DNA of 64,000 nt from Candidatus Gottesmanbacteria bacterium (lineage in GTDB: Bacteria > Patescibacteriota > Microgenomatia > UBA10105 > UBA927), in contig JAHFKN010000001.1 in NCBI GenBank assembly GCA_023245355.1, positions 268,596 to 332,595 on the forward strand, read 5' to 3'. How positions within the stretch are numbered: the first letter of the stretch is position 1; every line of letters starts with the position of its first letter. The translations under genes and the position numbers were made by a program. Shown here in pieces: positions 668-53,671 of this stretch. The notes under the pieces are model-generated. The model did not search any database and was not told where the DNA came from. It was given only the letters and a program-made list of their open reading frames with translations.

Positions 668-699
668 ATCCTGATATATGCGTGTCAGCCTCCGTTATA

Positions 700-740: not shown

Positions 741-746
741 ATCTTC

Positions 747-17845: not shown

Positions 17846-17858
17846 GATTTGCGGTCTG

Positions 17859-18344: not shown

Positions 18345-18356
18345 ACAGATCCTCCT

Positions 18357-19733: not shown

Positions 19734-19748
19734 ATATTTCCTCCTAAT

Positions 19749-19892
19749 AAAAAAGCCCCCACCACAATATGCTTGTGATAGGGGTCCAAATTATTTCGGA
19801 CGGTTCCACCCTACTTCCCCGATCGTATCGGGACAACTTCATTTATGTTCGGTAAGACTCCCCCGGAGCCACCCGGGATCACCGTCTCACAC
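19749..19892 (-). promoter_or_regulatory. T-box riboswitch leader (glycine-specific by context) with terminator
   Basis: Minus strand AGGGUGGAACCG T-box core (plus 19801-19812). Terminator stem GGACCCCUAUCACAAG/CUUGUGGUGGGGGC with UUUUUUAUU tail (plus 19749-19790). AGGAGG RBS lies 8 nt before the glyQS ATG. Confidence 0.7.
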
Positions 19893-19898
19893 AAAGAC

Positions 19899-19929
19899 AA
19901 GTGTACCGTATGCGAATTTTGTCTGTCAA
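19899..19929 (-). promoter_or_regulatory. Promoter of the glyQS T-box leader
   Basis: TTGACA (plus 19924-19929, minus orientation), 18 nt spacer, TACACT -10 (plus 19900-19905). Confidence 0.5.
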
Positions 19930-20498: not shown

Positions 20499-20503
20499 GA
20501 AGA

Positions 20504-36446: not shown

Positions 36447-36452
36447 ATGGGG

Positions 36453-37442
36453 TTATCCGGAATATCCTTCAGGATGAGTCGCATGCCATCGCATGGCTGA
36501 TTCGACTATATTACGGATATCCGAATGCTTCGGTTTCCAGCCGAATTCGCGCATGAGCTTCCTAGGATCCGATACAAGCACTGCCGGATCCCCGCTTCTC
36601 CGGTCGGATTTCCGGACGTTGAATGTCTTACCTGCGACGTCTTTTACCACGTTTACCACTTCCTGCACGCTCACGCCCTGACCGGTACCCACGTTATATA
36701 CGTCACTCTGATGGCCCGAAAACAGCGCCTCCAGAGCCAATATATGCGCTTCACACAGATCTTCTATATGGATATAGTCCCGTAATGCCGTGCCGTCGGG
36801 AGTTTTATAATCCGTGCCGAATATCATAAACTCCGGGCGTTTCCCGAGAGCCGCCGCACACGCAAGCGGAATAAGATGGGATTCCTCTGCGTGCATTTCC
36901 CCGTTGTTGCCGTCCAACGCGGCTCCTGCAGCATTAAAGTACCGGAGTGCGATGCTTCTGATTGCAAACGACCGGTCATATACCCGGAGCAATTCCTCAA
37001 ACGCCCATTTGGATAACCCATACGGAGATACCGGATCCTTCTTATGATCTTCGGAAATAAGCGGCGTTACCGGATTGCCGTAAACGGCAGCGGTAGAGGA
37101 AAAGATAATATGCTTCACCCCCGCCTCTTTCATCCCCTCAAGCAATGTCACGGGAGCGATCACGTTATTTTTCATGTATTTGATCGGCTGGCGCATTGAC
37201 TCTTCCACGCGGATGTATCCGGCAAAATGCAGGATTCCGTGTATCTTGTGCTCTGCGAAAATCCGCTGTATCAGGGATGCATCACCGACATTTCCCTGTA
37301 TGACGGTCGCTCCATTAGGAAGTGCTTGCCTGTGGCCGAATTCAAATGTATCCAGAACTATAGGCTCGTAGCCGCGGCTTGCCAGCATGCGTGTCATGTG
37401 GCTCCCTATGTAGCCGGCGCCCCCGGTTACTAAAATCTTCAT
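36453..37442 (-). CDS. galE: UDP-glucose 4-epimerase
   Basis: MKILVTGGAGYIGSH, YxxxK (PYGLSKWAFEE), LRYFNAAGA, DGTALRDYIHIEDL - close match to GalE throughout. Confidence 0.85.
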   Translation of the reverse strand: MKILVTGGAGYIGSHMTRMLASRGYEPIVLDTFEFGHRQALPNGATVIQGNVGDASLIQRIFAEHKIHGILHFAGYIRVEESMRQPIKYMKNNVIAPVTLLEGMKEAGVKHIIFSSTAAVYGNPVTPLISEDHKKDPVSPYGLSKWAFEELLRVYDRSFAIRSIALRYFNAAGAALDGNNGEMHAEESHLIPLACAAALGKRPEFMIFGTDYKTPDGTALRDYIHIEDLCEAHILALEALFSGHQSDVYNVGTGQGVSVQEVVNVVKDVAGKTFNVRKSDRRSGDPAVLVSDPRKLMREFGWKPKHSDIRNIVESAMRWHATHPEGYSG

Positions 37443-37447
37443 GCTCT

Positions 37448-37696
37448 TTATTGTACCTGATGGGGCTTCAAAGATGAAATGACGATAAACGTGATAAAAA
37501 ATGCCGCTGCGTACCAGGTAAGCCGCTCAGCGGTAAAAAACGTCCAGGTCGCAAACAACGGTATGGCAAGGGTAAGACTCGCCAGTCCTGCAATAACCAG
37601 CAGTCGGGGTTTACGAACCCCCAGCAGCGCGCCCAAAATAAGAAAAAACAATATATCCTGAGGCTTCATTTCGTTACAGCGCTTTATAATAGGCAA
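37448..37696 (-). CDS. Small hypothetical membrane protein
   Basis: 82 aa, 2-3 predicted TM segments, no recognisable family; start overlaps downstream gene end. Confidence 0.35.
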   Translation of the reverse strand: MPIIKRCNEMKPQDILFFLILGALLGVRKPRLLVIAGLASLTLAIPLFATWTFFTAERLTWYAAAFFITFIVISSLKPHQVQ

Positions 37697-38615
37697 TGGT
37701 TAGCTTGAGTCCTGCATCGACAGGTACCACCGGCGCCCACCCCAACAGCTTCTTCGCTTTGGAAATATCGGGTTTGCGCTGCGTCGGATCATCTGCCGGC
37801 AGATCCTTATGTGCTGTCTCTGACGCGGACTCTGTCATCGTTTTTATTTTGGTCGCCAAATCTACCATCGTGTATTCCTCAGGGTTTCCGAGGTTTACGA
37901 CTTCGCCTTTGGTTTGTTCTTTCTCCATAAGAGAAATAAGACCGGAAACCATATCGCTTACGAAACAAAATGACCGTGTCTGTTTGCCGTCTCCGTATAT
38001 TGTGATCGGCTCACCTTTGAGTGCCTGATTTACGAAATTGGATATCACCCGTCCGTCATCGGGCCGCATCTTCGGGCCGTAGGTATTGAATATCCGGGCG
38101 ATCCGGGCGTCGACGCCGAATTTACGCACGTATAGCATTGTCATCATCTCGCCGAACCGTTTGGACTCGTCGTAACATGCGCGAACGCCGTTAGGATTCA
38201 CATTGCCCCAATATGTTTCCTTCTGCGGATGCTCCTTGGGATCTCCATACACTTCCGACGTGGACGTAAAAAGAAACTTGGCGCCATGTGCTTTCGCAAC
38301 CTTGAGGAGCGCTCTCGTGCCGACGGTGTTAACGAGCGCCGTCTCCTCCGGATAATTCTGATAATCCGGAACCGACGCGGGTGAGGCCAGATGATAGATA
38401 TAATTGATCGGCCCCAGCACCGGCAGCTCGTTGATGACGTCGTATTTTATAAACGTAAAATCCGGATGCTTGCTGGCCTCACGGAGATTATTTTCGTTTC
38501 CGGTCAGCAGGTTATCGAGGGCAAACACTTTATAGCCTTTACTGAGCAATGCATCGACAAGATTGCTGCCGATAAATCCGGCTCCTCCGGTTACTATGCA
38601 TATTTTTTTATTCAT
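37674..38615 (-). CDS. UDP-glucuronate decarboxylase (UDP-xylose synthase, UXS)
   Basis: CIVTGGAGFIGSN, ASPASV, NPNGVRACYDESKRFGEMM, NTYGPKMRPDDGRVISNF - motifs diagnostic of UXS/ArnA-decarboxylase clade. Confidence 0.85.
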   Translation of the reverse strand: MNKKICIVTGGAGFIGSNLVDALLSKGYKVFALDNLLTGNENNLREASKHPDFTFIKYDVINELPVLGPINYIYHLASPASVPDYQNYPEETALVNTVGTRALLKVAKAHGAKFLFTSTSEVYGDPKEHPQKETYWGNVNPNGVRACYDESKRFGEMMTMLYVRKFGVDARIARIFNTYGPKMRPDDGRVISNFVNQALKGEPITIYGDGKQTRSFCFVSDMVSGLISLMEKEQTKGEVVNLGNPEEYTMVDLATKIKTMTESASETAHKDLPADDPTQRKPDISKAKKLLGWAPVVPVDAGLKLTIAYYKAL

Positions 38616-38641: not shown

Positions 38642-41617
38642 TTACTTCAGTATGAGCGGTACTAACACCTGATACATTTTATCTGCAAGCTTTGCCTGGC
38701 TTTGTGGTGACGGATGCACCACATCCTGTAAATCGGAAGTATCCAACCAGGTATACGGATCGATATATGAAATACCCTTTAGAGAAGCTTCTGCCCGTAT
38801 CGCATTGCTGTATGAACGGATTTCCTGTTCAGAAAAATCCTTCCTCCGCAATAATCCGACGGCGATGATGCGCGTAGAGGGAGTTTCTTCCCGTATCCGT
38901 GACAGTAATGCCGCATAATTCGAACGGAATACATCAAGCGGAACCGTATGAGCCAGATCGTTGGTACCCATAAATATGAGCGCAATGTCGGGTTTGAATA
39001 CGCTTATATCGGTGCTGACACGAAGCAAAGCTGAATCCCATCCTGCAATCGGCGAAACGGACGAACCGAATATACCCGCATTATGAACTCTGTATCCTAA
39101 TTGCTTGGCAAGCATATACGAATAATTGTTTGGCCCGAACGAAGACGTGATCGAATCTCCTAAAATTGCCATGACCGGTTTTTCCAAATCCTCCGGAGGC
39201 ATCACGATGCTTCCTTTATCCGCCGATAATTTCCTGACACGCACATCACACGGCACCATTGCACTACTGCAGATTACCCGCGCCGTTACGGGCACCGGCT
39301 CTTTTGACGGTAACGGTATATCAAGGCGTTTGTTACTAAACGGAGATGCGAGTGTATACACTGCATCCCCGATGTGTAGCTCCAGCATCTGTTCGTCCGG
39401 CACGGTATTTACGCCATCTGCTTCAACACGCAGCATCGTCGCATTTTTCAACCGGAATGATACTTCGCTTCCCCCAAATCGGGAGCTTACCATTTGCTCT
39501 CCTGTTATCGGATGAATGAACCGCATCCACTCTGAAGAATACCGAGTGGCGGGACTATTCAACACATCGGATTCCTGAGGAAGAAAACGGTATGCACTAA
39601 ACATTATTCCTGCTAAAACGACGACCATCGCTCCCTTGCCCGCTATGTTCCTTATCCGTCTGTTTCTCATCAGGAAAAACAGCAGAAGAATCAAAAGTGC
39701 GATTCCCGTGCCCCGATACGACCATACCAGCAGTAATTCTTTGGAATACCAGACGGAAACCCTGCTCGTGTAGTTGGAATCGATTACAAAGCTATTCAGT
39801 CCATCTTTCGTTTTTCTGCTCCGGATATATGATTCACCATCCCAGAGTTTCCATGACGGGTCAAAGCTTTCGGAAAATATAAGTTCTACCGGCCGGTTAG
39901 ATGTGTTGATGTTGACCGTATACAACGTCGAACGAACGCGCTGCTCCTGCTGCCGTTCCAGATCAAAATTTTCCAATTCGCGGTAAAAATGTCCGGCGGG
40001 TTTTGCGTATTCATATACCGCAAGTCCGGTAAACTCGGGCAAACGCGTCATGTATGGCACCGTATCCAGCGCTTTCACCATGCGTTCCCGGAGCAAGGGG
40101 TCATACGACCGGTCGGTCAAAAATATCTCCCCCATCGAGTCCTCGGGGATTACAATATATTTAATGGAATACGACCGGATCAATTGTTGCGCTGACGGGT
40201 CAGTGAGTTCTGAAATAATCGCTTCCGGATCACTTGTTTTAAACACATCGCTGGCATTTATAAGCGGATGATGCTCCGACTGAAACACGAACCGCTGTCT
40301 CCAGGGAACGGCGAGTATACGGCTAAATCCCTGATCCGACACGGCCAGCTGTTCAAACCGGGTATAATCTGAAGCGACAGTCACAGTTCCGAATGTGCCT
40401 CGCACTTCGCCTTTCCAAAACGGCAGCAGTAACAGCATCCAGAAAGCCAGGAACGCCGGGAGCACATATGCCGAGTGATACTTCTTTACCTTGCCCAATA
40501 CCATTTCGATACTTCCGACGGCATAGGGCAACAGCACCGAAAACGACAGCGCCGTCAACAAATAAAATTTCGTAGGATCGCGGAATCCGCTAAACAAGGG
40601 AAGATGCGTAAACGCCCAGTTATACACCTGTCCGAACGGAGGATTTACTCCTTTTGCAAAAAACGCGCCGATCAGGGCGAGCATCACAAAAAAACGGTAC
40701 TGACCATGCTCATGCGTTTTCTCCTGACGTGTAAAAACAAGCGGAAGCATGGCAATAAACGGCAACAGCAGAAATTCCGGACGCATAAAATATGTTTTTC
40801 CGAATATATTCTCCGGCCAGTTAGGATGGAGAAGCGACAGTGTCTTGGAAAATTCCGCCCAACTTAAATATGACAGCCATCCGGGATCACCATAGCCGGC
40901 CGGCAATCCGAACGACGGAGCGGCCATAAGCGGGATAAACCAAAACAGATTTGCTGCAATGATCCAGAGAGCAGGGACTATATACATACGCGCCGTGGCT
41001 ATCCAGCGTGATGCAGGAATGCGTATTACGGCATACAACACTAGTGCGGCATAGAGAAGATATGCGTAGCGTATGTCAAAAATAATAAACGCGACGGATG
41101 CGATGGTAAAAAGCAGCGTGTTTCCGCGGATGAAACTGCCCAGCACAAACGGAGCCGCCGCATACGCCATCATAAGTCCGACCTGACCGCCGCCTGAAAT
41201 CATGAGTATGTAGGTATTCGTCATGTATACCAATGCGCCGATAGCAGCCAGCTTGCGTTCTTTTATGACCGACTTTACAAAATAATATGCTCCCGATAAT
41301 CCGAAAAATAAAAACGGCCAGAAAAACATGATGCGCATGGCAATCAGCCATGGGATATGAAAAACGGATACGAGGAGCCGGATTCCGACATGCAGGTAGC
41401 TATCAAGGTTCAGAATATGAAACGTACTCCCGCCCAACCCGTTCCCTGCCACCTCGCTCCATGCAAGCGGAAGCCAGGTAAAATCTCCGAGCCGCTGGGG
41501 ATATAAAAACGTGAAGTCGGGAGCGCTCAGTATTCCGCCTTTAAACCACCGGAGGTACACCGCTGTGACAATTCCAAGGCACGCCAATTTAACAAAAATC
41601 GGGATACGGAACTTCAT
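38642..41617 (-). CDS. Giant (991 aa) YfhO/AftD-like GT-C membrane module fused to C-terminal SGNH/GDSL hydrolase domain
   Basis: N-terminal ~560 aa polytopic. Then a periplasmic beta-rich segment with [16 protein letters not shown]...SFVIDSNY...[13 protein letters not shown] and TM (YfhO-type C-terminal signature). Then ILGDSITSS (block I), GTND (block III), DVVHPS (block V) SGNH motifs. Confidence 0.6.
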
Positions 41618-42210
41618 GGACGTTTTTTGATTTCTCTTGCCGGATTACCGACGACAATCATATATGGCTTCACGCTCTTCGTTACGACAGAGCCGGCACC
41701 GATTACCGCTCCCTTACCGATTCTGACACCGGGAAGAATGATGCAGTGCGCACCAATCCAGACATCATCTTCTATCACGACAGGAGCCGACGTGCACCCC
41801 TGCAGATTTATGGGAACATCACGCTTGGAAAAATTATGATTAAAATCCGTAATGAAGCTATATGCGGATATCTGTACGTGATTGCCTATCTCTATCAGCT
41901 TTTGAGCAGTGATAAAACAATTGTCGTCAATGAGAACGTCCGAGCCGATGCTGACATGCCCGCCGTATCCTGCATCGACACGAGTACATCTTCCGAACCG
42001 CACATTATCTCCGACGCGGATATGCTTTTTATGACTTTGAAAAAAACTATTACTGCCGCCCAAAAACACATCAGCGGACATATCAAAACCACGAAAGTTT
42101 AGTAATACTACATGTATGCGTGAGCAAATAAACTTTATCAACCATTTTGTGGCATGAAAAATAAGTTCAATGTATCCTTTTCTCGCTGTAATTTGTACGG
42201 TGCTGCTCAT
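41614..42210 (-). CDS. Left-handed beta-helix (hexapeptide) acetyltransferase
   Basis: Hexapeptide repeats [31 protein letters not shown]..., [30 protein letters not shown]. Confidence 0.7.
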
Positions 42211-42213
42211 AAA

Positions 42214-42600
42214 CTATTTGCGTAACTCTACTACCATTTTGATAAACACATACCACAACATAAAATAAACAATATTAGCTATTGAATCGACAAGGCTGCT
42301 ATTCAAACCCAGCGCAGGAATGATTGACACAACTAAAGCAACTAATATGCCAATCATAATTGTGCTATGTTTAATCGAAAAAAGCGACATCGCAATAAAT
42401 ACCAATATGAGGTGATATAAAAACGGTGAAATAAGCAGGTTGATATACGGTATTTGGATATATAACCTTAGAACAAACACTGCGACGACAAACAATTCAA
42501 GTTCGATCAAATGTTGCTTAATATAGATCCAAAGATTTTCAAAAAAAAGAAGCTGGCCGGAAAGCAATACTTGCTTGTATCTTTCTATTTTATTCTTCAT
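42214..42600 (-). CDS. Hypothetical small polytopic membrane protein (AT-rich island)
   Basis: 128 aa, 3-4 TM, no recognisable family; about 35-38% GC versus about 52% elsewhere. Confidence 0.35.
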   Translation of the reverse strand: MKNKIERYKQVLLSGQLLFFENLWIYIKQHLIELELFVVAVFVLRLYIQIPYINLLISPFLYHLILVFIAMSLFSIKHSTIMIGILVALVVSIIPALGLNSSLVDSIANIVYFMLWYVFIKMVVELRK

Positions 42601-45600
42601 ATATTTTTGCGTTTTATAACCATAAAAATGATTATTCCGATAATCCCGACGACTGTAACAAGTACGCCTTTATAGAAGAGGGACTGGGGATAAAATTCTA
42701 GTATAAGACTCTTTGCTGGCTTCTCTTTCAGATACCAGGCATTTGCATATCCATTTACCTGCATGTGCATGTTTTCCTCATATGTTGGCGGCCTCCAGCG
42801 TGTTATAACTTCCAGAATATTACCGGTTGAATCAATCGGGCTCAATCTCCACAATCCATTGTAATTTTCATTAAATACCAACACGAGGGGAAATGTTGCC
42901 CGGGAAAGATCGACGACATATTTCGTTTGATTAATCCTGGTGTAGGAAATATTCTGATGAACCTGCTTTTCACCCGTGCCGTTATGAATATATAGCGTTG
43001 GTTTGACTATTTCGTGAACGGAAACGCTATCCTTCAGAACGGTTTCTTCGTCGCCTATAGTGACACACTGGTATATATACGCCCCCGTGTCACCGTCTGA
43101 ACCGGAAAAATATCTTTCTTGTGGTGTCGATTTATAACGGCTGAAATTATACGCATAATCTGGTATAACGACATCATCGTCAATTGAAAATGTATCCGAA
43201 TTGATTTTGTTTTTTCTCAGATAAAACTGCGTGCTGGACGAAAGTGCGGAAGCGTTATTAATAACTAACCGATACGTACGCTCCCAATCAAAACCCTGTA
43301 TTTGCGATATCTGACACATCTGTTTCCGCGAATCAATTGTGACGGCCTTCCTTGTGGTTTCACTTAAAAGCGACTGGCGTTTCGGGAATATAAGTGTTAC
43401 CAACTCCTTTGGTTTCGCTTCATATGCACCCAATTCAAACCGATCTGATAGTGGATTCTTCGCAATTCCCGAAAGGTCGACAAAGCGATTCCCTATCATC
43501 ATGCCAATCGGTAAAACCCTCTTCCCGTCTGTTCCCGTGGCAAGGGTTAGCGGATCCAGATAAAATATCCCCTCAGATTTCTCATCGGGAAGCCGATAAA
43601 CCGCACGATCGTCGTAGACGTTCTTCAATGTTTCGATGCGTTTGATTACTACACCAAGTTGTTTCTGGAATAGAAGAGTCGCTGTTGTATATTTTGGACT
43701 ATTGCCAAGCATTTTATTTACAATTCGATCCTCTGACATAGCGAAGTCATATATACGCGCCACCACATCGATAGCCTCCGGAGAATCGAGGCTTGACGGC
43801 ATAAGAATCTGGACTGAATCCCACTGCTCTGTCAATTCTGCTATCACCGGTAATAATGCATCCGCGTCAACATTCCGCTCTCCAAGACTTGCCAGTTCGG
43901 AAATTCTCTTCAGCGACAAGCCTAGACGATGAGAAATTTTCGTTTCGACGGAAGCGGTATTTTCATCCGGAGTTTTTTCCCTCCATCGCTTTATGCGATA
44001 CAGGAGGGATCCAGGTAAAATACTTGTATAGCGAGGGACAATATCTGCTTCCTGCTTTTGCAACTCACATGTAAAGCAGGCTACACCGCTGATTACATCA
44101 CGTATGGGGAGCGACTCAAAAGAGGGATTAACAATAGATTTACCTACTATTTGCTGCAGAATAAAGTCTGTCGTGCCCCACAAAACGGCTCCCACCGCGT
44201 CTTTTGGCTGTCCGTTCAATTGTGTCAATCCAGAAACACTATAAATTTTATTTTTCGTGTACGTTGGAACTTGATATATCTGCCACGGTCCTTCATTCCA
44301 TACGAGAGGATATGTTTTCTTCTGTGATAACACATCTCTATACACATCAGGCGACTCACTGGGTATATCCGTGCTTTTATACGCTATATCTCCCGCCAGC
44401 AGAATATGTCTGATTTGAAAAAGCGTAAGCAGGTTACCTGCGAGTGTAGAATTACTCTGAATTTCTTTTGCGAGCCGGTTGAACATGGCTAACTGACTTT
44501 CATTAAGGTAATAAGAGTATTGAACGAATGGCTTTGGCCTTATAAGGTTAAGCGGGCTATATAAACTGAAATAATTCCAGCTAAATAATGCTGCTTTCCA
44601 TGTCGAATTAAAGCGAGGCAAAATAAGCGTTCTCCCCTCATCATCCAAATTATCCTTGCTCCATGAATCAAAAGATTCGATATAATCGGGAATCGTAAGT
44701 AACGTTGACAAATTCCTGTTGTAATAAAAAAAGCCACGCTGGAAATACGGGAAGTGATATAACAGTACCAAAACGAAAACTGCTGCAATCGCACTTGAGG
44801 AAAGTATTCTCCGTATGGCCGGACGGTAAAACGCAAAAAATTTACTTTCGGAAATTAGATAATTTATGGTAAATGAAATAAGGATTGCAAAGGAAAGCAG
44901 TAACGCAGGGATAAATTTATATTGGGCCGACCGAAAAACCACAAAACCCGGTACATAAAGCATGAAAAGCGAATATAGCCAACCCGTTGGGGGATGTGAT
45001 CCCGCGGAAAAGAAAATGCCCAATAAGGATAAACCGGTAAAATACAAAATAACTTTTTTCTGCTCAATCTGCCTGACCAAAAGCACCGCCGCATACGCAG
45101 CTGGAGCAAATAGCATACTGACAACAATCAATATTTTTTTCTGAAGAAACTGATTTGCATAAGGATGATACGGATTATCGTACCAATCCGGAAAACCCTG
45201 AAGCCGGAATAGATTGCTGACGCTCGTGTGAATGCTAACGGAATCCGTCCATTTCAGCACCGCGGCTTTTCCGCCTACAGCCTGCAACGTACTGTAATAG
45301 GTTGTTATCACATAATAGAGGAACGGAAATAACCAATAAGCATTGAGAAACAAGCTTGTTACAATCGCAACTCCTACAAATCGTGCCGATCGCTTATATA
45401 ATTCTTTTCGTTCACTCCCTGTGGCCAGAGCAATAAAATACACAAACACCATTACAAATGCAGTAAGTAAGCCCCCGAAAAGCGGAAGACTGAGGCCTCC
45501 CCCACCATTAAATAGGAATAACACTGCTGCGAGCAAAATTCCGGATCTTATCGTGTGCGACGATTTGCGCATGACACCAATACATATCATCACTGTAAGC

Positions 45601-46112
45601 GGAAGCGTGGTATATGCAGAGAATGTTGTTCCGGCGCCATACCTCCACAAAGCTAACAAATAAAAATTAAACACATACAAGAATGCTGCCAGCAAAGGGA
45701 ACCACCTATAACGGAAAATGTCACGCAGGGAAAATGCGAGCATATACATCCCGACTTGCATGGCAAAAAACCAAAACACAAACGTCACCCGCTCTGAGTC
45801 AGCTACCGATAGACCTATCCTGCTTGCCGCTGCCTGTATGGATAATATCGGAATCACGCTTATACTTGTGGTATTATCCAATCCGAAACTATCCTGACTA
45901 TTCCACGTAAAAAATCTGTTTTTATACGCCTCAATGACATTTATCGGATATCCCGAATCGTGTCCTGTTAGTATTTGACCATTCGGAATCCACAACAGCG
46001 GTATACAAGAAATAAATCCAATCACCACGATGTCGAATAATCTCGGAAGCGATTTTAAGAAAAATCTAGTCATATATTTTCTCGTTATAAACAAGCAGCA
46101 AACATCATACAC
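42597..46112 (-). CDS. Giant (1171 aa) AftD/YfhO-like GT-C membrane glycosyltransferase with large extracytoplasmic domain and C-terminal TM anchor
   Basis: N-terminal ~430 aa with about 12 TM. Then ~650 aa soluble region. C-terminal signature LVLVFNENYNGLWRL...NGYANAWYL...LEFYPQSLFYKG followed by a TM helix - the pattern seen in DUF3367/AftD and YfhO proteins. Markedly AT-rich. Confidence 0.55.
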   Translation of the reverse strand: MYDVCCLFITRKYMTRFFLKSLPRLFDIVVIGFISCIPLLWIPNGQILTGHDSGYPINVIEAYKNRFFTWNSQDSFGLDNTTSISVIPILSIQAAASRIGLSVADSERVTFVFWFFAMQVGMYMLAFSLRDIFRYRWFPLLAAFLYVFNFYLLALWRYGAGTTFSAYTTLPLTVMICIGVMRKSSHTIRSGILLAAVLFLFNGGGGLSLPLFGGLLTAFVMVFVYFIALATGSERKELYKRSARFVGVAIVTSLFLNAYWLFPFLYYVITTYYSTLQAVGGKAAVLKWTDSVSIHTSVSNLFRLQGFPDWYDNPYHPYANQFLQKKILIVVSMLFAPAAYAAVLLVRQIEQKKVILYFTGLSLLGIFFSAGSHPPTGWLYSLFMLYVPGFVVFRSAQYKFIPALLLSFAILISFTINYLISESKFFAFYRPAIRRILSSSAIAAVFVLVLLYHFPYFQRGFFYYNRNLSTLLTIPDYIESFDSWSKDNLDDEGRTLILPRFNSTWKAALFSWNYFSLYSPLNLIRPKPFVQYSYYLNESQLAMFNRLAKEIQSNSTLAGNLLTLFQIRHILLAGDIAYKSTDIPSESPDVYRDVLSQKKTYPLVWNEGPWQIYQVPTYTKNKIYSVSGLTQLNGQPKDAVGAVLWGTTDFILQQIVGKSIVNPSFESLPIRDVISGVACFTCELQKQEADIVPRYTSILPGSLLYRIKRWREKTPDENTASVETKISHRLGLSLKRISELASLGERNVDADALLPVIAELTEQWDSVQILMPSSLDSPEAIDVVARIYDFAMSEDRIVNKMLGNSPKYTTATLLFQKQLGVVIKRIETLKNVYDDRAVYRLPDEKSEGIFYLDPLTLATGTDGKRVLPIGMMIGNRFVDLSGIAKNPLSDRFELGAYEAKPKELVTLIFPKRQSLLSETTRKAVTIDSRKQMCQISQIQGFDWERTYRLVINNASALSSSTQFYLRKNKINSDTFSIDDDVVIPDYAYNFSRYKSTPQERYFSGSDGDTGAYIYQCVTIGDEETVLKDSVSVHEIVKPTLYIHNGTGEKQVHQNISYTRINQTKYVVDLSRATFPLVLVFNENYNGLWRLSPIDSTGNILEVITRWRPPTYEENMHMQVNGYANAWYLKEKPAKSLILEFYPQSLFYKGVLVTVVGIIGIIIFMVIKRKNI

Positions 46113-47412
46113 TCATCCTAGATGCATTACTATGACGGTGCTTCTGCATCTCATTAAACGCCCTAGTAAATTGTTGCTCCCACGTATTAGTACGAGCTAT
46201 TCTAATGGCTTCTTTACGCATACGCATATATGTTTGAGCATCGGATAACACCATTAATATTGCATTAGCGAAACTTTGTTCATCGTCATTCGCGAGTATT
46301 GCTGCACCTTGATCCGCCATTTCTTTGCCAAGAGGAGGAACCTTTGAACTGATAATAGGCAATCCCGCAGCACAATATGCTCGTATTTTTCCAGCATCTC
46401 CGTAATACCGCGGTGAGCCGGATATCGACCGGTACGGAGCAACAGCTATTGCACAAGACGTCATAATTTTAGACATTCTCGTTGCGTCGGGAATAAAACC
46501 ATGAAATATAACGGCCTCAATCTGATGATAATCCCGTATGATCGGCCGTAACCAGGCAAAAGTTTTTTCCGTTCCCCCTATAATATGGAGTGTTGCATCT
46601 TTAAATTTCTTCCTCACGAGTGCCAAAGCCCGTATTGCCACGTCAGGACCGTTTTCTGGTCCTAACGTGCCCATAAAAACAATGGAGTTAGGTATGACTT
46701 TGTTAAGAGGATTCACATGTATTTGGGACGGAAATAATCCGTTTGCAACATGAATAACCGGTGCCGCGCTATAACGGTTTAATCCTGCCTTGATACGCGC
46801 CGGATGTATCGCGCGGGAAACATCCCAGATATAATCTGCATGTTTTGCGCTGAATCGGTCGAATATCAGATACAGCGAATTGAACCACCTGTTCTTATAT
46901 CTGTTCGGTGAATAATCCGAAACGTAGTAGATCACCTTTTTCACTCTTCCTAACCTACGCAACATGATACCCGCCAATGTGTTGATACTTTCCAGACCGA
47001 TAAAATAATCGAATTGCGTTTTATCCCTGAGCGTCCAATCCATAATCGAAAGGAAGTCCCGTATCTTAAAAGAAATATGCGTGCCGTTGGTATTCCGTAA
47101 ATACAAAATGGGCTTAAGAAGCAGAAACCACCAGGAAGGTTTATACGGAATAAACTCGTGCTTTTTGTAGTAATACACTTCGATTTTGTGAAGTACGTCT
47201 TCACTGCTGGGAACAAGCTGGTCGATAAGCACCAGTTTTTTTATCCTCGGAACCAAAAAATCGCGAAGCGGTTCGACACTGCCGTTGGTCGGCATACGCT
47301 TACCGTTTGCCCATAAGGAAAATGTAGCAAACAATACAGACGTGTCTTTTGTAAGCCCGAGGTTAGCGTTTTTCATTCTTGATCCGTGCCCTCGCCTCTT
47401 CAACCATCGCAC
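46105..47412 (-). CDS. GT4-family glycosyltransferase with N-terminal extension
   Basis: C-terminal GT-B motifs AIAVAPYRSISGSPRYYGDAGKIRAYCAAGLPIIS; about 45% GC. Confidence 0.7.
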   Translation of the reverse strand: MRWLKRRGHGSRMKNANLGLTKDTSVLFATFSLWANGKRMPTNGSVEPLRDFLVPRIKKLVLIDQLVPSSEDVLHKIEVYYYKKHEFIPYKPSWWFLLLKPILYLRNTNGTHISFKIRDFLSIMDWTLRDKTQFDYFIGLESINTLAGIMLRRLGRVKKVIYYVSDYSPNRYKNRWFNSLYLIFDRFSAKHADYIWDVSRAIHPARIKAGLNRYSAAPVIHVANGLFPSQIHVNPLNKVIPNSIVFMGTLGPENGPDVAIRALALVRKKFKDATLHIIGGTEKTFAWLRPIIRDYHQIEAVIFHGFIPDATRMSKIMTSCAIAVAPYRSISGSPRYYGDAGKIRAYCAAGLPIISSKVPPLGKEMADQGAAILANDDEQSFANAILMVLSDAQTYMRMRKEAIRIARTNTWEQQFTRAFNEMQKHRHSNASRMSV

Positions 47413-48184
47413 GGATCCCGTCCCGAAGCTCGATAGTGGGTAACCACCCTGGGATACGTCCCCGGTTAGGTGAAGCTATAGGGTCATGACCGGTTTTGCT
47501 GCCCGGAACCACGACGGCTCCGGTAAAATCGGCAATCATGTTAGCGACATCGATGATCTGAGCCCATTCATAACTGCTGGCATCATACACGGTTTTCCGC
47601 AGCCCCTTGGAATGAAGCGCCATGTGAAATGCATTGGACAAATCCGTGATGTGAGTGAATTGCCGCCACTCGGCGCCGCTGGTCATCATGGTAATTTTTT
47701 TCGTTTTAAGGGCCTGGTAGATGAAGTCCGAAATCACATGGCTTTTCACATCTTCTCCCTCCATATACCCATACGCATTCCACACCCGCACGCATTTACC
47801 TCCCAAAAGGTCTGTCCACACCTCGCCCAGCCGTTTGGTCACTCCGTAGACCGTATCCACTTCTTCAGAAAGCTGGCTGGACACAAAAAGGAACGGTTTT
47901 TTGGCTTTTTCCAGCTGATCAAACACGTTTTTCATAAGAGCCAAATTCCAGTCAAGCTGATTTTTCTGAAGCTTCGGTTCGTAAAGATACTTGCTGCCTC
48001 CCACATCCCACGCGAGAAAATAGACGGCATCAGCCTTTGCCAACGGAAGTTGTGCTATCCGCGCATCTTCTTTTTCCGTACGCTTTATATCGAAACGGAT
48101 TACCGCTTCCCCTTTCGCTTCGAGGAACGCACAAAACGGCGTGCCGATAAATCCTTCTGAACCGATAACCAGATTTGTATTCAT
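47363..48184 (-). CDS. NAD(P)-dependent epimerase/reductase, short extended-SDR family
   Basis: VIGSEGFIGTPF Rossmann motif, YGVTK catalytic YxxxK; 273 aa. Confidence 0.65.
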   Translation of the reverse strand: MNTNLVIGSEGFIGTPFCAFLEAKGEAVIRFDIKRTEKEDARIAQLPLAKADAVYFLAWDVGGSKYLYEPKLQKNQLDWNLALMKNVFDQLEKAKKPFLFVSSQLSEEVDTVYGVTKRLGEVWTDLLGGKCVRVWNAYGYMEGEDVKSHVISDFIYQALKTKKITMMTSGAEWRQFTHITDLSNAFHMALHSKGLRKTVYDASSYEWAQIIDVANMIADFTGAVVVPGSKTGHDPIASPNRGRIPGWLPTIELRDGIRAMVEEARARIKNEKR

Positions 48185-49194
48185 TTGTCTTTACGTTTCA
48201 GTCTGACCTGTTCTTCTATCCATGCATATGTTTTGGAAAGACCGTCATATAGTTTGCTCGTTGGTTCCCATCCGAGTTTTTTCCGGATAAGGCGGTTATC
48301 AGAAGACCTGCCGCGTACGCCCAGCGGGCCTTTCACGTGCTTAATCGTAAGCGACTTGCCTGCAATATCCATCACCATTTCCGCCAGTTTGTTTATACTC
48401 ACCATTTCTTCTGATCCGATATTTACCGGACCGGAGAATGTACTGCTCATCAGTCTCCGTACGCCCTCCAGACACTCGTCAATATAAAGATATGAACGCG
48501 TCTGTTTGCCGTCTCCCCACATTTCCATACTCCCTCCGTCTTTGGCCTGAGCTACCTTGCGACAGATAGCTGCCGGTGACTTTTCTTTGCCATTATTCCA
48601 GCTTCCTTCCGGACCGAATATATTATGGAACCGCGCGATATGAACCTCGAGGCCGTAATTCTTTGCATACGCCTGATACATGCGTTCACCAAATATCTTT
48701 TCCCACCCATACTCGCTGTCTGGAGCAGCCGGATATGCGGAGGATTCCTCCAAATTAGGATTATTCGGGTCCAGCTGATTGTGCTCCGGATAAATACATG
48801 CGGAAGAAGAAAAGAAAATCTTTTTAATTTTTGCCAATCTTCCGAAATGGAGCGCGTTGAGGTTAATCTGCGCGGAATTATGCATCACATCTGCATCATG
48901 CTCACCGGTAAAAATATACCCTGCCCCTCCCATATCGGCTGCCAGCTGATATACCTCATCATACGGGCGGTCGAACACTTTTTGACAGAATTTCTGATCA
49001 CGCAAGTCACCCACAATAAATTCATCAGCGGGAGATTTGCTGTACTCATGCCGTTTGATATCGACTCCGCGCACCCAATAGCCTTCTTTTTTCAGACGCT
49101 TCACGAGGTGCCCGCCGATAAACCCGCCGGCACCCAATACCAATGCGTTCTTTATGCTTTTCTGCTTAGTCTTCATAATGTATGTATTTGTCAA
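48181..49194 (-). CDS. GDP-mannose 3,5-epimerase (GME)-like
   Basis: Matches my recollection of plant GME over most of its length: ADMGGAGYI, SSSACIYPE, YGWEKI, RFHNIFGPEGSWNNGKEKSPAAICRKV, MWGDGKQTRSYLYIDECLEGVRRL, PVNIGSEEMVSINKLAEMV, GVRGRSSDN. Distinct from Fcl/GMER. Confidence 0.8.
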   Translation of the reverse strand: MTNTYIMKTKQKSIKNALVLGAGGFIGGHLVKRLKKEGYWVRGVDIKRHEYSKSPADEFIVGDLRDQKFCQKVFDRPYDEVYQLAADMGGAGYIFTGEHDADVMHNSAQINLNALHFGRLAKIKKIFFSSSACIYPEHNQLDPNNPNLEESSAYPAAPDSEYGWEKIFGERMYQAYAKNYGLEVHIARFHNIFGPEGSWNNGKEKSPAAICRKVAQAKDGGSMEMWGDGKQTRSYLYIDECLEGVRRLMSSTFSGPVNIGSEEMVSINKLAEMVMDIAGKSLTIKHVKGPLGVRGRSSDNRLIRKKLGWEPTSKLYDGLSKTYAWIEEQVRLKRKDK

Positions 49195-49245
49195 TACTAT
49201 GGAGTTTCTGCAAAATCGTCAACTCATTCCTATTGGAAATTATAA
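49195..49245 (-). promoter_or_regulatory. Candidate internal promoter upstream of GME gene
   Basis: AT-rich 51 bp gap; minus strand TTGACG - 17 nt - TAGTAT. Confidence 0.3.
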
Positions 49246-49812
49246 TTAACCACTTTTAACTCTTTGAGCAGGTATGCCGACGTACACTCCCGGACGTAAA
49301 ATGTCCTTTGTTACAACCGCATTTGCGCCAATGGTAACATTATTTGTTATTGTTAATTTTCCTTTCGCAATAATCTTTGCGCCTGCTCCAATCTGAAAAT
49401 TGTCTCCAATAACAATATTAAAGTTGTTTGTTTTAAAACCTGTTCCTATGGTTACCTGCCCCATGATTGAAGAATTTTTTCCAATCACGGTATTATCGGT
49501 TATTACGATTGATCTGTTATGTAAAAAAAGCCCTCCGTTTATAGTCACTTGTGGTTCAATATGATAATCCAGAATATAATATGTGAAACAAAAATATGCC
49601 GGGTATAATAAATACCCCATTAGCCGAAATATGATAAAAGAATTAAATAATAAATATCGCTCCGCCCGATACCATAACGAAAAATGCATACCCGGACTAT
49701 GGAAAATAACCGCCAACTTATACCAAAGTGGTGCTCGCGTATCGATAAAATACCGCGAAATATCATCTCGTAATTGATCCAAACTATCTTTCAAGGAAAC
49801 AGAACTTGTCAT
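49246..49812 (-). CDS. CysE/WcaB-like hexapeptide O-acetyltransferase
   Basis: C-terminal IVITDNTVIGKNSSIMGQVTIGTG...VIGDNFQIGAGAKIIAKGKLTITNNVTIGANAVVTKD. The listed ORF 49246..50475 extends spuriously upstream; start set at MTSSVSLKD. Confidence 0.65.
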   Translation of the reverse strand: MTSSVSLKDSLDQLRDDISRYFIDTRAPLWYKLAVIFHSPGMHFSLWYRAERYLLFNSFIIFRLMGYLLYPAYFCFTYYILDYHIEPQVTINGGLFLHNRSIVITDNTVIGKNSSIMGQVTIGTGFKTNNFNIVIGDNFQIGAGAKIIAKGKLTITNNVTIGANAVVTKDILRPGVYVGIPAQRVKSG

Positions 49813-49819
49813 AACGGTT

Positions 49820-50608
49820 TTATATTTTCTTAAGTACGGCATGGAACCGGGTAGCATACCGCATATCCTTATCCAGGGTATCAATGAGTAAACCTCCAGT
49901 GTTGGTAATAAAAAATATAAACGGTGCAAACGGAAAAAGAAGTAGCTTAACCAGCCAGTTTTTCTCCATAATTTTCCGTATGACAAACTGATTGGTACCT
50001 GCGGCCATGGAGGTGCCGAAAAACGACCGCGTGTTGATGGAAACGGCGCGTAATCCGTGTTTCTTACCGAGCAAGGTAAGGCACGATTTGGTGTACCGGA
50101 AGTAATCAAATCCCGTTCCTTCGCTGTGTTCCCGGTAATAGTACGGAACGGAAATGATGCAGTGCCCTCCCTTCTTGAGGACGCGCGACGCTTCGGAAAA
50201 AAACGTGTCGGGATCAGATATATGTTCCAATACTTCAAACGAGCAGTAGGTGTCAAACGAACCGGTCTTAAACGGAAGATTGAGGGCATCCGCAACCTGA
50301 TCAACCGAGCTTTTTGTTTTCTGTTTCCCGAAAAGATACGACGACAACACACCCAATACGCTCGTGCGGTTATTGTACCGCACAAATATATCATCCCAGG
50401 ATGAATAATCAGTCGCAAGATATGATGTAATCCGTTTTCCCGCGGCCCTAAGAATCCGTTCCTTATTTTCCCCATTCCCGCATCCTGTTTCTATCACCTT
50501 TCCTTTTATATACCGTTGCATATCGGCATTCCCTAGCGCCATTTGACGAAATTCCAGCCAGTGGGGGTAAAACGGCGTGCCGGATATAAAAAATTGAAGG
50601 ATATTCAT
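49820..50608 (-). CDS. Class I SAM-dependent methyltransferase
   Basis: VIETGCGNGE motif I, FDTYCSFEVLEHI post-II. Confidence 0.75.
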   Translation of the reverse strand: MNILQFFISGTPFYPHWLEFRQMALGNADMQRYIKGKVIETGCGNGENKERILRAAGKRITSYLATDYSSWDDIFVRYNNRTSVLGVLSSYLFGKQKTKSSVDQVADALNLPFKTGSFDTYCSFEVLEHISDPDTFFSEASRVLKKGGHCIISVPYYYREHSEGTGFDYFRYTKSCLTLLGKKHGLRAVSINTRSFFGTSMAAGTNQFVIRKIMEKNWLVKLLLFPFAPFIFFITNTGGLLIDTLDKDMRYATRFHAVLKKI

Positions 50609-52498: not shown

Positions 52499-53632
52499 TT
52501 ACACGGTTATGCCCATGGCTTTCAATGGCTTACGCACCATGCGCTCAAATGAATATGCCCGTGCAGCCTGCACGGCGCGTTCTCTCATAGCCGGATATTT
52601 TCCGGTATATACGGAATCTATCGCACGTACAAAATCAGAAACTGCAGGACGTATAACGACGCCGCAGCGGAATTCGCGTATGACATCAGACGTTGAGACG
52701 ACACCCGTAGTCACGACGGGCAGACCGGCGGCGAGGTATTCGCGGATCTTCATGGAATCGCCGTACCGCGTCCACGGATCTTTATCTATATATAGCGCAA
52801 GGCCTATGCCTGCGGTAGAAAGAAACTCGTGCACTTTTTCGCGACATAGTGGTCCGTGAAGTACAACAGTTTTTTTCCTCTGCCAGCGCGTAATTTCATT
52901 TTTTATGGCTTTCGGAAAATTAAGTTCGCCGATGATGTGCAGCCGTATATCCGGATATTTTTTCGTGAGGGGCACCAGTGCATCCAGTACAACTTCGTAA
53001 TTTAAAGACGTCGTTGACGTACCGACGATGACCATCCAATGCGCATGATGCGCATCCTTACCCTCATGCACTCCGACCGGAGCATTCGGAACGAAATAAT
53101 TTTTCTCTTTGGAAACTCCCTGTGTTACGCGGTGCTCGAAAATACGCGTCGAGACATTCCACACCTGATCGGCATGACGGATACAAAATCTGTCAATGCA
53201 ATGATATATGCCGTTGAGCAGTCTGTTTCCGAACCGTGAATCAGCATAATCCGCCGTATAGTAAATCACTCTGTTAACCAGACCGGCGTACCTGCCTACA
53301 ATTCCCCAAAGGGCGTTAAGCGGATCTATCCCGATATACAAAGAAACTTTTCCGGTTTTTACAAGCGCGGTCAACACAATGTATGCCTCGATTAGTGTAC
53401 GGAGTGGTAGTAACGCCGGAGTTTTTTGCATCTGGTACCGCTGAACACCGGAAGACGCATACTGCTCGTGCAAAATTCTGTATGTGCCGTAAATCGGAAA
53501 ATGAAGAACAGTAAACGGGATTTTTTTGGAGGAAAGCAAATCGAACAATGACGCCCCCGTCCCGCTCACCGCCTTCCCATCGCCCAAAAACAACGAGTGG
53601 ATCGCGATAAGAATCGTTTTATGTTCAGCCAT
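52499..53632 (-). CDS. GT4-family glycosyltransferase
   Basis: GT-B C-domain: LHIIGELNF...REYLAAGLPVVTT. Confidence 0.75.
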   Translation of the reverse strand: MAEHKTILIAIHSLFLGDGKAVSGTGASLFDLLSSKKIPFTVLHFPIYGTYRILHEQYASSGVQRYQMQKTPALLPLRTLIEAYIVLTALVKTGKVSLYIGIDPLNALWGIVGRYAGLVNRVIYYTADYADSRFGNRLLNGIYHCIDRFCIRHADQVWNVSTRIFEHRVTQGVSKEKNYFVPNAPVGVHEGKDAHHAHWMVIVGTSTTSLNYEVVLDALVPLTKKYPDIRLHIIGELNFPKAIKNEITRWQRKKTVVLHGPLCREKVHEFLSTAGIGLALYIDKDPWTRYGDSMKIREYLAAGLPVVTTGVVSTSDVIREFRCGVVIRPAVSDFVRAIDSVYTGKYPAMRERAVQAARAYSFERMVRKPLKAMGITV

Positions 53633-53671
53633 ATAAACGGAATCAGGTCAGCGCATGCCTAATATGCGCGT

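Follow-up and report, generated by a model that had tools for sequence, protein, structure and literature searches.

Does a stretch of AT-rich DNA inside an otherwise uniform operon have to be a foreign insertion? The question is raised by positions 41,800-47,400 of a 64-kb stretch of DNA (the window), which comes from a bacterium of the Patescibacteria (Microgenomates/Woesebacteria-like) and holds a very large, collinear gene cluster for a cell-envelope glycan. An earlier note had described a drop in GC from about 52% to 38-45% across four genes and had proposed that these genes are a horizontally acquired module. The gene content is as that note claimed (a hexapeptide acetyltransferase, a 128-aa membrane protein, a 1171-aa ORF at 42597-46112, to which we refer as the giant, and a GT4 glycosyltransferase), with all four island genes on the minus strand (Table 1). 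We conclude, with a probability of roughly 0.65, that the island is a homologous allelic cassette replacement within the lineage, extending from ~42,060 to 46,550-46,950, which came from a related, probably lower-GC bacterium and would have altered the surface glycan.

Table 1. Coordinates of the island genes, the proposed replaced tract and related features of the cluster (positions in the window; GC3, GC content of third codon positions, given for the four island genes)
Feature	Position	Strand	Details	GC3
Inferred replaced (recombinant) tract	42060..46950	-	~4.5-4.9 kb; blastn, sliding and segment identity, GC	
Membrane protein, 991 aa, C-terminal SGNH/GDSL esterase domain	38642..41617	-	Pfam Lipase_GDSL_2, E 3e-22	
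Hexapeptide (WbbJ/WcaF-like) sugar O-acetyltransferase, 198 aa, apparently chimeric	41614..42210	-	Pfam Hexapep, E 6.8e-18	0.432
Membrane partner, 128 aa	42214..42600	-	start overlaps stop of giant by 4 nt	0.395
Giant GT-C glycosyltransferase, AftD-like	42597..46112	-	1171 aa from GTG 46112; 1158 aa from ATG 46073	0.423
GT4 glycosyltransferase, 435 aa, apparently partly chimeric	46105..47412	-	Pfam Glyco_trans_1_4 and Glycos_transf_1	0.438
GT2 enzymes resembling polyprenyl-phosphate sugar synthases	58582-59382 and 60606-61322	-	NCBIfam similarity	
Wzx-like MOP flippase	59363-60748	-	Pfam Polysacc_synt_3, E 1.1e-11	

The dip in GC is real and lies where it had been placed, with a background nearer 49-50%: the stretch has a GC content of 0.417 (41.7%) and the inferred replaced tract one of 0.414, compared with 0.496 (49.6%) in the remainder of the window in either case. 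In 1-kb windows, 42-47 kb ranges from 0.364 to 0.441, as opposed to ~0.48-0.53 outside, and the lowest-GC 4-kb window in all 64 kb is 42,001-46,000 (0.4115; mean 0.489, sd 0.027). Windows of 300 nt place the minimum (0.31-0.37) at 42,050-42,800, followed by values of 0.37-0.46 until ~47,300; the genes being on the minus strand, the AT-rich part of the acetyltransferase gene is its 5' end at the high coordinates, encoding the N-terminus, and not the 3' part as first reported. The shift affects synonymous positions and goes beyond amino-acid composition alone: the four island genes have z-scores of -3.5 to -5 in GC3, and each has a lower value than any of the 46 other genes of the window (0.542 +/- 0.029, minimum 0.469). 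The adjacent gene for the 991-aa protein, an equally fast-evolving neighbour, has no such dip (GC3 0.528). The tetranucleotide check named in the earlier note does not flag the island, the Markov-normalised signature of which is not deviant (r ~0.50 vs a median of 0.58, sd 0.085). Another AT-rich gene, stronger in this respect than the island, is located at 49,246-49,830.

In what follows, W denotes the genome of the window, and L001, L003, L004, L008, L112, L113, L115 and similar labels denote the related loci with which it was compared. Across 63 loci the GC content of the giant differs from that of its flanks by a median of -0.009, and low GC is therefore not intrinsic to the giant family; the extremes are W (-0.074) and L004 (-0.098). 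In GC-rich relatives the giant and its flanks are close (0.500 vs 0.511 in L011, 0.510 vs 0.501 in L030), and the giant of L008 is slightly below its own flanks (-0.029). One part of the GC dip in the GT4 gene, at 47,000-47,200, is common to L008 and is therefore gene-intrinsic.

The giant ORF exists as described, although its start is more likely ATG 46073, as called in a 97%-identical relative, which gives a protein of 1158 aa. The motifs NENYNGLWRL and NGYANAWYL and the C-terminal transmembrane (TM) helix that had been quoted in favor of an AftD/YfhO-like enzyme are present in its translation. The structural model contains a multi-helix N-terminal TM domain (~1-460) with the GT-C fold, an alpha/beta domain (~461-700), a four-helix bundle (~705-831), two beta-sandwich regions (~836-1140) and a C-terminal TM helix (1141-1170). 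The closest solved structure, the soluble part included, is AftD (6w98_A; Foldseek E 4.4e-17), the arabinofuranosyltransferase D of mycobacteria (PDB 6W98/6WBX; Pfam PF11847 GT-C_AftD, formerly DUF3367). Consistent with a GT-C enzyme, the first outer loop, between helices 5-34 and 81-98 of the model, would be the putative catalytic loop with conserved acidic residues: D52 (in GHDSGYP) is invariant in alignments of 38 and of 17 sequences, and D79 occurs in all of the 17 and in at least 90% of the 38. Among giant alleles, this loop is conserved at 85%, compared with 36% for the first beta-sandwich and 29% for the four-helix bundle.

PF11847 matches 10 of 38 homologues of the giant (best E 3.1e-11), and many database homologues carry a precomputed PF11847 annotation. 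The giant of the window itself matches neither PF11847 nor YfhO among Pfam and NCBIfam models, even at E <= 10, and an HMM of its family reaches AftD only at E 0.28, aligning the C-terminal beta domain only. The AftD-type GT-C assignment is accordingly sound for the fold and the family neighbourhood, with membership in AftD (PF11847) by transitivity only. The YfhO half of the earlier label finds no support in this protein: the family (PF09586) has no match in the giant or in any of the 38 homologues. A sub-threshold match to DUF5667 (PF18915) on residues 697-771 (20.7 bits vs a cut-off of 27, E 5.8e-4) recurs in 14 of the 38 at E <= 0.01 and coincides with the modeled four-helix bundle. With its single C-terminal TM helix in the model, the giant does not show the AftD-type ACP/phosphopantetheine site (TM15-16), and none of the scanned proteins of the window belongs to a decaprenyl-phospho-arabinose pathway (DprE1/E2, UbiA-type synthase); the only FAD_binding_4 protein among them is MurB.

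The 128-aa partner, the family of which is uncharacterised, is modeled as an N-terminal helix followed by four TM helices (AF2 pLDDT 91.1). It has no Pfam, PDB-sequence or PDB-fold match, and nine orthologues match neither GtrA nor any other Pfam family at E <= 10. In a library of 1.8 billion proteins, the family has 30 representatives, which range from 102 to 136 aa, with 28 in the range 118-136 aa. The partner is translationally coupled to the giant, a partner homologue starts -60 to +200 nt from the stop of the giant in 65 of 90 loci, and the two genes form a conserved pair that is exchanged together.

Other genes of the cluster provide context. The acetyltransferase has WbbJ/WcaF-like NCBIfam matches below their cut-offs. 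The 991-aa protein, the resident downstream flank of the tract in this window, is a distant paralogue of the giant (two collinear BLASTP segments, E 9e-7 and 1e-4). Both GT2 proteins resemble ArnC, PpgS, AglJ and dolichyl-phosphate hexose transferase (E 1e-8 to 7e-36, below curated cut-offs) and, judging by these similarities, could together with the flippase supply and flip lipid-linked donors. A sub-cut-off similarity to the C-terminal part of YfhO (E 2.2e-5) is found in a window protein at 62392-63936.

The closest homologues of the giant and of the 991-aa flank are all from Patescibacteria (Woesebacteria, Gottesmanbacteria, Levybacteria). Gene order in L001, L003, L004, L112 and L115 is the same as in the window, and the four island genes keep their order in collinear clusters even where the giant is only ~50% identical. 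Among W, L001, L008 and L115, the flanking proteins epi273 and GT4 are 91-95% and 86-97% identical, respectively, and the flanking proteins of the next-closest relatives L008 and L115 are 86-95% identical to those of W. In contrast, W/L001 and L008/L115 share only 49% identity in the giant and 32-36% in the partner (36% to L008, 32% to L115), while the giants of L008 and L115 are 88% identical to each other. The giant of W is nearer to those of L112 and L113 (55%), though their flanks are more distant. The clade {W, L001, L008, L115} has a neighbor-joining bootstrap of 100% for the flank vs 0.5% for the giant.

The cassette slot also differs in content, L008 and L115 having an additional 211-aa methyltransferase gene that W, L003, L004 and L112 lack. 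The 991-aa protein of W is 87% identical to that of L008 and 58% to that of L115, in which this gene was swapped separately, with other breakpoints (57-58% vs 86-94%). Neighbouring alleles thus occur in different combinations, giants A and B being crossed with 991-aa alleles X and Y, and within this small clade no fewer than two independent swaps are seen. Nothing points to a very recent exchange: between W and L001, the island is at the general baseline of ~95% nucleotide identity.

The limits of the tract fall inside both neighbouring genes, and the nucleotide-identity profiles agree on this. In blastn comparison with L008, identity is 84.1% over 38,668-42,072 and 82.8% over 46,142-48,199, with only patches of at most 67% between them. 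The downstream junction is at ~42,000-42,070. In the acetyltransferase, identity to L008 is 34% for residues 1-50 but 93% for residues 51-198; the sequence marks the protein as a chimera, with codons 1-50 apparently from the replaced tract and codons 51-198 from the resident flank. For the upstream junction, the bounds are ~46,550 and ~46,950, and identity collapses sharply at ~46,140-46,300. Across GT4, nucleotide identity to L008 declines from 0.90 to 0.49, and the protein, divided into thirds, gives 95%, 89% and 73%; the first 150 residues are resident (95% to L008), while the C-terminal ~145 residues (73% to L008) are no closer to it than to any other relative. Collinear flanks, a divergent central allele and junctions within the flanking genes, the marks of homologous allelic cassette replacement, are therefore all present.

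These observations bear unequally on the other ways in which the island could have arisen. As the earlier note had it, a four-gene module from a different lineage was inserted into a uniform operon, a reading that has in its favor GC and GC3 values clearly below those of all other genes of the window. However, every relative examined has these four genes in unchanged order, even at ~50% identity of the giant, and the named homologues are all Patescibacteria, like those of the flanks; GT4 toward its N-terminus and the bulk of the acetyltransferase are resident (93-95% to L008), and the tetranucleotide signature is unexceptional. There is no integrase or transposase, the ORFs of the region being all glycan-synthesis genes, and the window contains no tRNA gene and only imperfect chance repeats of 14-26 nt. 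The note had itself named closest homologues in the same lineage and syntenic context as the finding that would speak against it; this is literally what the homologues are, and an insertion from a different lineage is refuted on its own terms and retains hardly any probability. What stands of the proposed horizontal acquisition is that a transfer occurred, like for like and within the lineage; it neither brought in a new module nor included all four genes.

Could the cassette instead have diverged where it stands, the giant and its partner evolving fast under diversifying or relaxed selection and drifting toward AT? The membrane and exposed proteins of this cluster do diverge faster than its soluble enzymes (in comparison with L003 and L004, the giant and the 991-aa protein are ~47-52% identical and most soluble enzymes 67-83%), and the extracytoplasmic bundle and one beta-sandwich are the most variable parts of the giant. 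A faster rate in place does not account for the inconstant relation between the giant and the 991-aa protein (97% and 94% for W-L001, 76% and 71% for L003-L006, 49% and 87% for W-L008), the 88% that L008 and L115 retain, the steps in identity within single genes (34% vs 93% in one 198-aa protein), the methyltransferase gene in the slot, or the bootstrap values; the absence of any transfer is strongly disfavoured and quite improbable. An exchange did take place, and parsimony is silent on whether W/L001 or L008/L115 was the replaced branch, the flank tree splitting two vs two; replacement may have affected both. It is unlikely, albeit a reading with evidence of its own, that the replacement was on the L008/L115 branch, with the W/L001 allele ancestral and its low GC due to, for example, weak selection or low recombination: the tetranucleotide signature of the W tract is unremarkable, the methyltransferase gene, absent from W, L003, L004 and L112, looks derived, and the L008 giant is itself below its flanks in GC (-0.029). 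Against this, long-resident DNA should match its genome at synonymous sites, and the W tract has a GC3 of 0.42 vs 0.54; furthermore, the giants of the GC-rich L011 and L030 match their flanks, and the equally fast-evolving 991-aa neighbour is without a dip. It is the GC deficit by itself that points to W/L001, and not L008/L115, as the recipient.

Under the preferred reading, replacement of the allele in W/L001, homologous recombination would have brought in a deeply divergent allele of a two-gene cassette, the giant and its 128-aa partner, at the variable centre of the cluster, with one crossover near codon 50 of the conserved acetyltransferase gene and the other within the C-terminal third to two-thirds of GT4, likewise a conserved neighbour. 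Because the normalised tetranucleotide signature is not deviant, the donor was probably a related bacterium; it was not found among the loci compared, in which the best non-self allele of the giant is only 55% identical. Based on its fold only, the giant would sit in the cytoplasmic membrane and take a sugar from a polyprenyl-phosphate-linked donor, which the ArnC/PpgS-like GT2 enzymes of the cluster may make and which would then be flipped outward. The giant would add this sugar at the outer face to the growing surface glycan, the beta-sandwich and helical-bundle domains perhaps holding the acceptor. If it transfers sugar in this manner, a swap of the cassette would change the surface glycan, a process analogous to serotype conversion. 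More tentatively, and with the odds against it, the giant and its ~128-aa partner could be a self-contained, exchangeable "surface-glycan type" module in Microgenomates/Patescibacteria, in which the partner would serve giant GT-C enzymes as a dedicated subunit or lipid-linked-sugar flippase not recognised before, and recurrent swapping would diversify the surface of these episymbiotic bacteria under pressure from phages or host recognition.

Patescibacteria spend their lives attached to other microbes, presumably dependent on contacts at the surface, and we know of almost no experimental work on their cell envelope. Exchange of alleles or cassettes is an ordinary bacterial route to variation of surface sugars. 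The glycan cluster described here has the layout of serotype loci known from well-studied bacteria, with a conserved framework and a recombining, compositionally odd centre, in which a giant AftD-like GT-C is the variable enzyme and has a small, uncharacterised membrane protein as its partner. Alleles A and B between the same flanks, together with the chimeric acetyltransferase and GT4, offer a test set for surface variation, recombination and GT-C partners in this phylum. For genome scanning, the lesson of the locus is that AT-rich DNA within an operon need not be a foreign insertion and can reflect the like-for-like replacement of an allele by that of a relative.

Enterobacterial and streptococcal O-antigen and capsule loci have low-GC, serotype-specific centres that are exchanged by recombination in conserved flanks. 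Like them, the present locus has a conserved framework, divergent central alleles of a membrane enzyme, lower central GC, crossovers in conserved flanking genes and neighbouring alleles in various combinations; it differs in that the variable enzyme is an AftD-like GT-C and not Wzy or Wzx, the host is an uncultivated Patescibacterium, and the GC deficit is found in some lineages only. With the YfhO family the giant shares the GT-C superfamily and the motif pattern of the C-terminal beta domain, but, as noted above, no match. AftD is the nearest solved relative at only ~10-12% sequence identity. Its essential residues are K39, D41, E251, K361 and D474, and its ACP site lies between TM15 and TM16, in helices for which the giant has one C-terminal TM helix; the giant also differs in the four-helix bundle inserted in its soluble part, in the conserved small TM partner that accompanies it, and in its setting, a Patescibacterium without arabinogalactan and a window in which no decaprenyl-phospho-arabinose genes were found among the proteins scanned. 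The three-component glycosylation systems (GtrA/GtrB/Gtr* of Shigella and Salmonella O-antigen, and the pentofuranose systems; Kelly et al. 2024, PMC11127046) use an extracytoplasmic GT-C with a polyprenyl-phosphate sugar donor, the GT-C being the serotype-specific, exchangeable component. The giant is ~3x larger than Gtr* enzymes, no similarity of its 128-aa partner to GtrA, SMR, MATE or any known flippase is detectable, and the proposed exchange was by homologous replacement in a chromosomal cluster and not phage-borne. The resemblance to the Gtr systems is that here a GT-C and a small multi-TM protein make up an exchangeable pair, in a cluster that also encodes ArnC/PpgS-like GT2 enzymes, a context compatible with a polyprenyl-phosphate donor.

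The AT-rich island that the earlier note had placed at 41,800-47,400 is borne out by its composition, since both GC (0.417, against 0.496 in the background) and the GC3 of four genes fall below the rest of the window. GC3 is 0.432 in a 198-aa acetyltransferase, 0.395 in a 128-aa membrane protein (the partner), 0.423 in a very large AftD-like GT-C protein (the giant) and 0.438 in a 435-aa GT4; in the 46 other genes it is 0.542 +/- 0.029, with none below 0.469. The composition shift sits at synonymous sites. The interval 42,001-46,000 is the lowest-GC 4-kb window of all 64 kb (0.4115; mean 0.489, sd 0.027), and local GC over 300 nt reaches as little as 0.31-0.37. In the acetyltransferase, the AT-rich part lies at the 5' end when the coding strand is read, not at the 3' end as had been described. 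The tetranucleotide test that had been proposed (TETRA-type, GC-normalised) was run over the window and did not return the island as an outlier. The lowest correlation in that test (r 0.33) is at 16,500-20,500, a region of normal GC (0.50) containing MraW, tRNA-synthetase-like and RecO genes.

Features of the window and predicted domains of the giant (residue numbers where indicated)
Feature	Position	Strand	Remarks
Peptidoglycan/division genes	1-20 kb		FemAB, Mur ligases, MurA, MurB, MraW, a PBP, RecO
Single very large glycan cluster	~22.5 kb to window end		
480-aa membrane protein	28636-30078	-	Orthologue in locus L114 with weak PMT/PMT_2 matches
1062-aa membrane protein	30075-33263	-	No Pfam match; weak IctB/O-antigen-ligase-like NCBIfam match only
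376-aa GT4	34729-35859	-	Full length
196-aa ORF	35856-36446	-	Glyco_transf_4 (GT4 N-terminal-type) domain only
991-aa membrane protein	38642-41617	-	C-terminal SGNH/GDSL esterase fusion
198-aa acetyltransferase	41614-42210	-	
128-aa partner	42214-42600	-	
Giant	42597-46112	-	1171 aa from GTG at 46112
435-aa GT4	46105-47412	-	
EpsC/CysE-like hexapeptide acetyltransferase, ~194 aa	49246-49830	-	Second, stronger AT-rich gene
514-aa membrane protein	62392-63936	-	YfhO C-terminus match, sub-threshold
Giant, membrane domain	residues ~1-460		Invariant D52 (GHDSGYP) and D79 in first outer loop; model and alignments
Giant, alpha/beta domain	residues ~461-700		Model
Giant, four-helix bundle	residues ~705-831		Model
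Giant, two beta-sandwich regions	residues ~836-1140		Model
Giant, one C-terminal TM helix	residues 1141-1170		Model

We interpret the island as a probable homologous allelic replacement of ~4.5-4.9 kb (GC 0.41), extending from ~42,060 to 46,550-46,950, because the histories of this cassette and its flanks disagree, the junctions fall inside neighbouring genes and the content of the slot differs among relatives. Judged by the flanks, the window groups closely in one clade with the related loci L001, L008 and L115, at 91-95% identity in epi273 and 86-97% in the GT4. L008 and L115 share their alleles of both the giant (88%) and the partner (78%), whereas between them and the window/L001 pair the giant is 49% and the partner 32-36% identical. 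The giant of the window and L001 is no nearer to L008 and L115 than to any distant relative, and is nearer to L112 and L113 (55%). Identities of the giant and the 991-aa protein are 97 and 94% between the window and L001, 76 and 71% between L003 and L006, but 49 and 87% between the window and L008. Likewise, the neighbor-joining bootstrap for the clade of the window, L001, L008 and L115 is 100% in the flank tree (epi273 and GT4 residues 1-290) and 0.5% in the giant tree.

The edges of the cassette can be followed against L008. Blastn identity is 84.1% over 38,668-42,072 and 82.8% over 46,142-48,199, and collapses in between. Residues 1-50 of the acetyltransferase are 34% identical and residues 51-198 are 93% identical; successive thirds of the GT4 are 95, 89 and 73% identical, the last value being the distance to all other relatives, and nucleotide identity declines from 0.90 at ~47,000 to 0.75 at 46,400-46,800 and 0.49 at 46,100. 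The junctions lie within these two neighbor genes. Between the GT4 and the giant, L008 (2069-2704) and L114/L115 (4930-5565) contain an extra gene for a 211-aa methyltransferase, which is missing from the window, L001, L003, L004 and L112.

Several other explanations were weighed. That low GC is typical of the gene family is rejected by a median gene-minus-flank GC of -0.009 in 63 loci, among which the window (-0.074), L001 (-0.060), L004 (-0.098) and L012 (-0.066) are extremes. Low GC arising from the amino-acid composition of membrane proteins or from fast evolution is rejected because the shift extends to GC3 and spares the 991-aa paralogue, which is just as divergent. The earlier note had proposed horizontal acquisition of the whole module; transfer did take place, as the discordant cassette and flank histories indicate, but as an allele swap within the lineage, with crossovers in neighbor genes. 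Against a foreign four-gene island stand a gene order identical in every relative retrieved (L001, L003, L004, L112, L114/L115), homologues of the 991-aa protein in the same lineage and on the same contigs as those of the giant, and the lack of any tRNA, integrase or meaningful repeat around the tract; the search for promoters and terminators there likewise gave nothing beyond chance. Beyond L001, the giant is 52% identical in L003 (Woesebacteria GCA_018062625.1) and 51% in L004, and a different lineage for its closest homologues, which the earlier note had suggested checking for, was not found, those of the giant and of the flanking 991-aa protein both being Patescibacteria. Several GenBank third-party MAG records (L006, L008, L010, L011 and others) are titled "uncultured Gammaproteobacteria bacterium"; these titles look unreliable, since the loci are collinear with a Woesebacteria genome and carry a Patescibacteria-type cluster.

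The donor of the replaced allele was a related bacterium. The least secure step is polarity. The GC deficit suggests that the window and L001 received the allele, from a donor of lower GC. The closest class of alleles is that of L112, a 39%-GC relative which, at 55% identity, is not the donor. Across the tract the window and L001 are ~95% identical, the general baseline of their mosaic profile, and the cassette was therefore already present in their common ancestor. Synonymous identity between them is 0.92 in the cassette vs 0.64-0.86 in the flanks; the idea that the cassette recently swept from one to the other was set aside, the sliding profile being mosaic throughout, around a baseline of ~0.93-0.95. 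In two other lineages, L004 (10001-13450) and L012 (10007-13471), the orthologous giant is also strongly AT-shifted relative to its flanks; it is unshifted in most of the 63 loci; these shifts may be independent swaps.

Exchange seems to extend beyond this cassette. The 991-aa protein is distantly paralogous to the giant (BLASTP E 9e-7). Its gene in L115 (10001-13000) is 57-58% identical to those of the window, L001 and L008, which are 86-94% identical among themselves; this reveals a second exchange, with other breakpoints, although L115 has the same giant allele as L008. The EpsC/CysE-like acetyltransferase gene (GC 0.354; GC3 0.303, z -8.1) marks the point at which the window and L001 differ most (0.68-0.78 nucleotide, 79% amino-acid identity), has no orthologue in L004, and looks like another exchangeable slot. 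A 409-aa ORF called at 49246-50475 (-) is spurious: over its upstream two-thirds it shares sequence, in another frame, with the real 262-aa methyltransferase gene (49820-50608), and relatives call a 147-187-aa acetyltransferase there. Over 33,000-56,400, window-L001 nucleotide identity is a mosaic of 0.62 to 0.99, with low patches at ~35,600-37,700, 41,500-41,900, 47,550-47,900, 49,050-49,900 and 53,400-53,700, which suggests frequent recombination along the whole cluster.

Nearly the whole window is transcribed from the minus strand. The glycan cluster encodes a Bac_transf initiating phosphoglycosyltransferase, many GT4 and GT2 enzymes, at least seven NAD-dependent epimerase/dehydratases, methyl- and acetyltransferases, a Wzx-like flippase and several very large membrane proteins; with the 1062-, 480- and 514-aa proteins, the locus contains several GT-C-like enzymes. 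The 196-aa ORF lies directly upstream of the 376-aa GT4, and this order is kept in L001, L004 and L115, so that it does not reflect a local frameshift.

The giant probably starts at an ATG at 46073, giving 1158 aa. Of its earlier description as AftD/YfhO-like, the first half is right in kind, the modeled fold and transitivity placing it among the AftD-type GT-C enzymes, and the second is not upheld. Searches of Pfam and NCBIfam up to E <= 10 gave neither GT-C_AftD (PF11847, formerly DUF3367) nor YfhO, only a sub-threshold DUF5667 match (residues 697-771). Homology search returned 134 full-length relatives, the named ones all Patescibacteria (Woesebacteria, Gottesmanbacteria, "Patescibacteria group"); many carry a precomputed PF11847 match, and NCBI labels two of them "alpha-(1->3)-arabinofuranosyltransferase family protein". 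PF11847 matches 10 of 38 aligned homologues (best E 3.1e-11) and DUF5667 14 of them. Against PDB sequences, an HMM of these 38 reached AftD at no better than E 0.28, in an alignment confined to the C-terminal beta domain, its top matches being uninformative designed helical bundles. AftD and the giant have in common a GT-C core and CBM-like beta-sandwiches, but the additional C-terminal helices that build the ACP site of AftD (bioRxiv 10.1101/2019.12.22.885152) are missing from the giant, and the window proteins scanned included none of an arabinose-donor pathway. Among alleles, the catalytic first loop is 85% conserved, whereas the four-helix bundle (29%) and first beta-sandwich (36%) are hypervariable, a pattern consistent with chemistry that stays constant while the acceptor or the exposed surface varies. 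Our literature search found no paper combining Patescibacteria, GT-C and glycosyltransferase, and glycosyltransferases go unmentioned in a paper on HGT in Patescibacteria.

The partner gene overlaps the stop codon of the giant and encodes a protein modeled (pLDDT 91) as four TM helices preceded by one N-terminal helix, with no match in Pfam, PDB sequences or PDB folds. A word-index homology search recovered only a 95% relative. When 1.8 billion representatives were searched exhaustively, no more than 30 relatives came up, 102-136 aa long and in 28 cases 118-136 aa. With an HMM built from nine orthologues, a homologue starting -60 to +200 nt from the giant stop was found in 65 of 90 loci, a pairing that persists where the giant is only 24% identical. 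Giant and partner are an old, conserved two-gene unit. The smaller protein may serve as a subunit or as a flippase.

What is established about GT-C enzymes and about three-component glycosylation (PMC11127046) suggests a likely mode of action for the giant. An ArnC/PpgS/AglJ-like GT2 enzyme of the cluster would make a polyprenyl-phosphate sugar donor, which would then be flipped outward; the giant, in the membrane, would take the sugar and add it to a surface glycan outside the cell, its beta-sandwich domains holding the acceptor. Exchange of the cassette would then change the glycan, and can be likened to the conversion of O-antigen serotypes by Gtr-type GT-C enzymes. GT-C enzymes and the replacement of cassettes in polysaccharide loci are both familiar; what gives this case some interest is a conserved partner that is still uncharacterised, and its occurrence in Patescibacteria.
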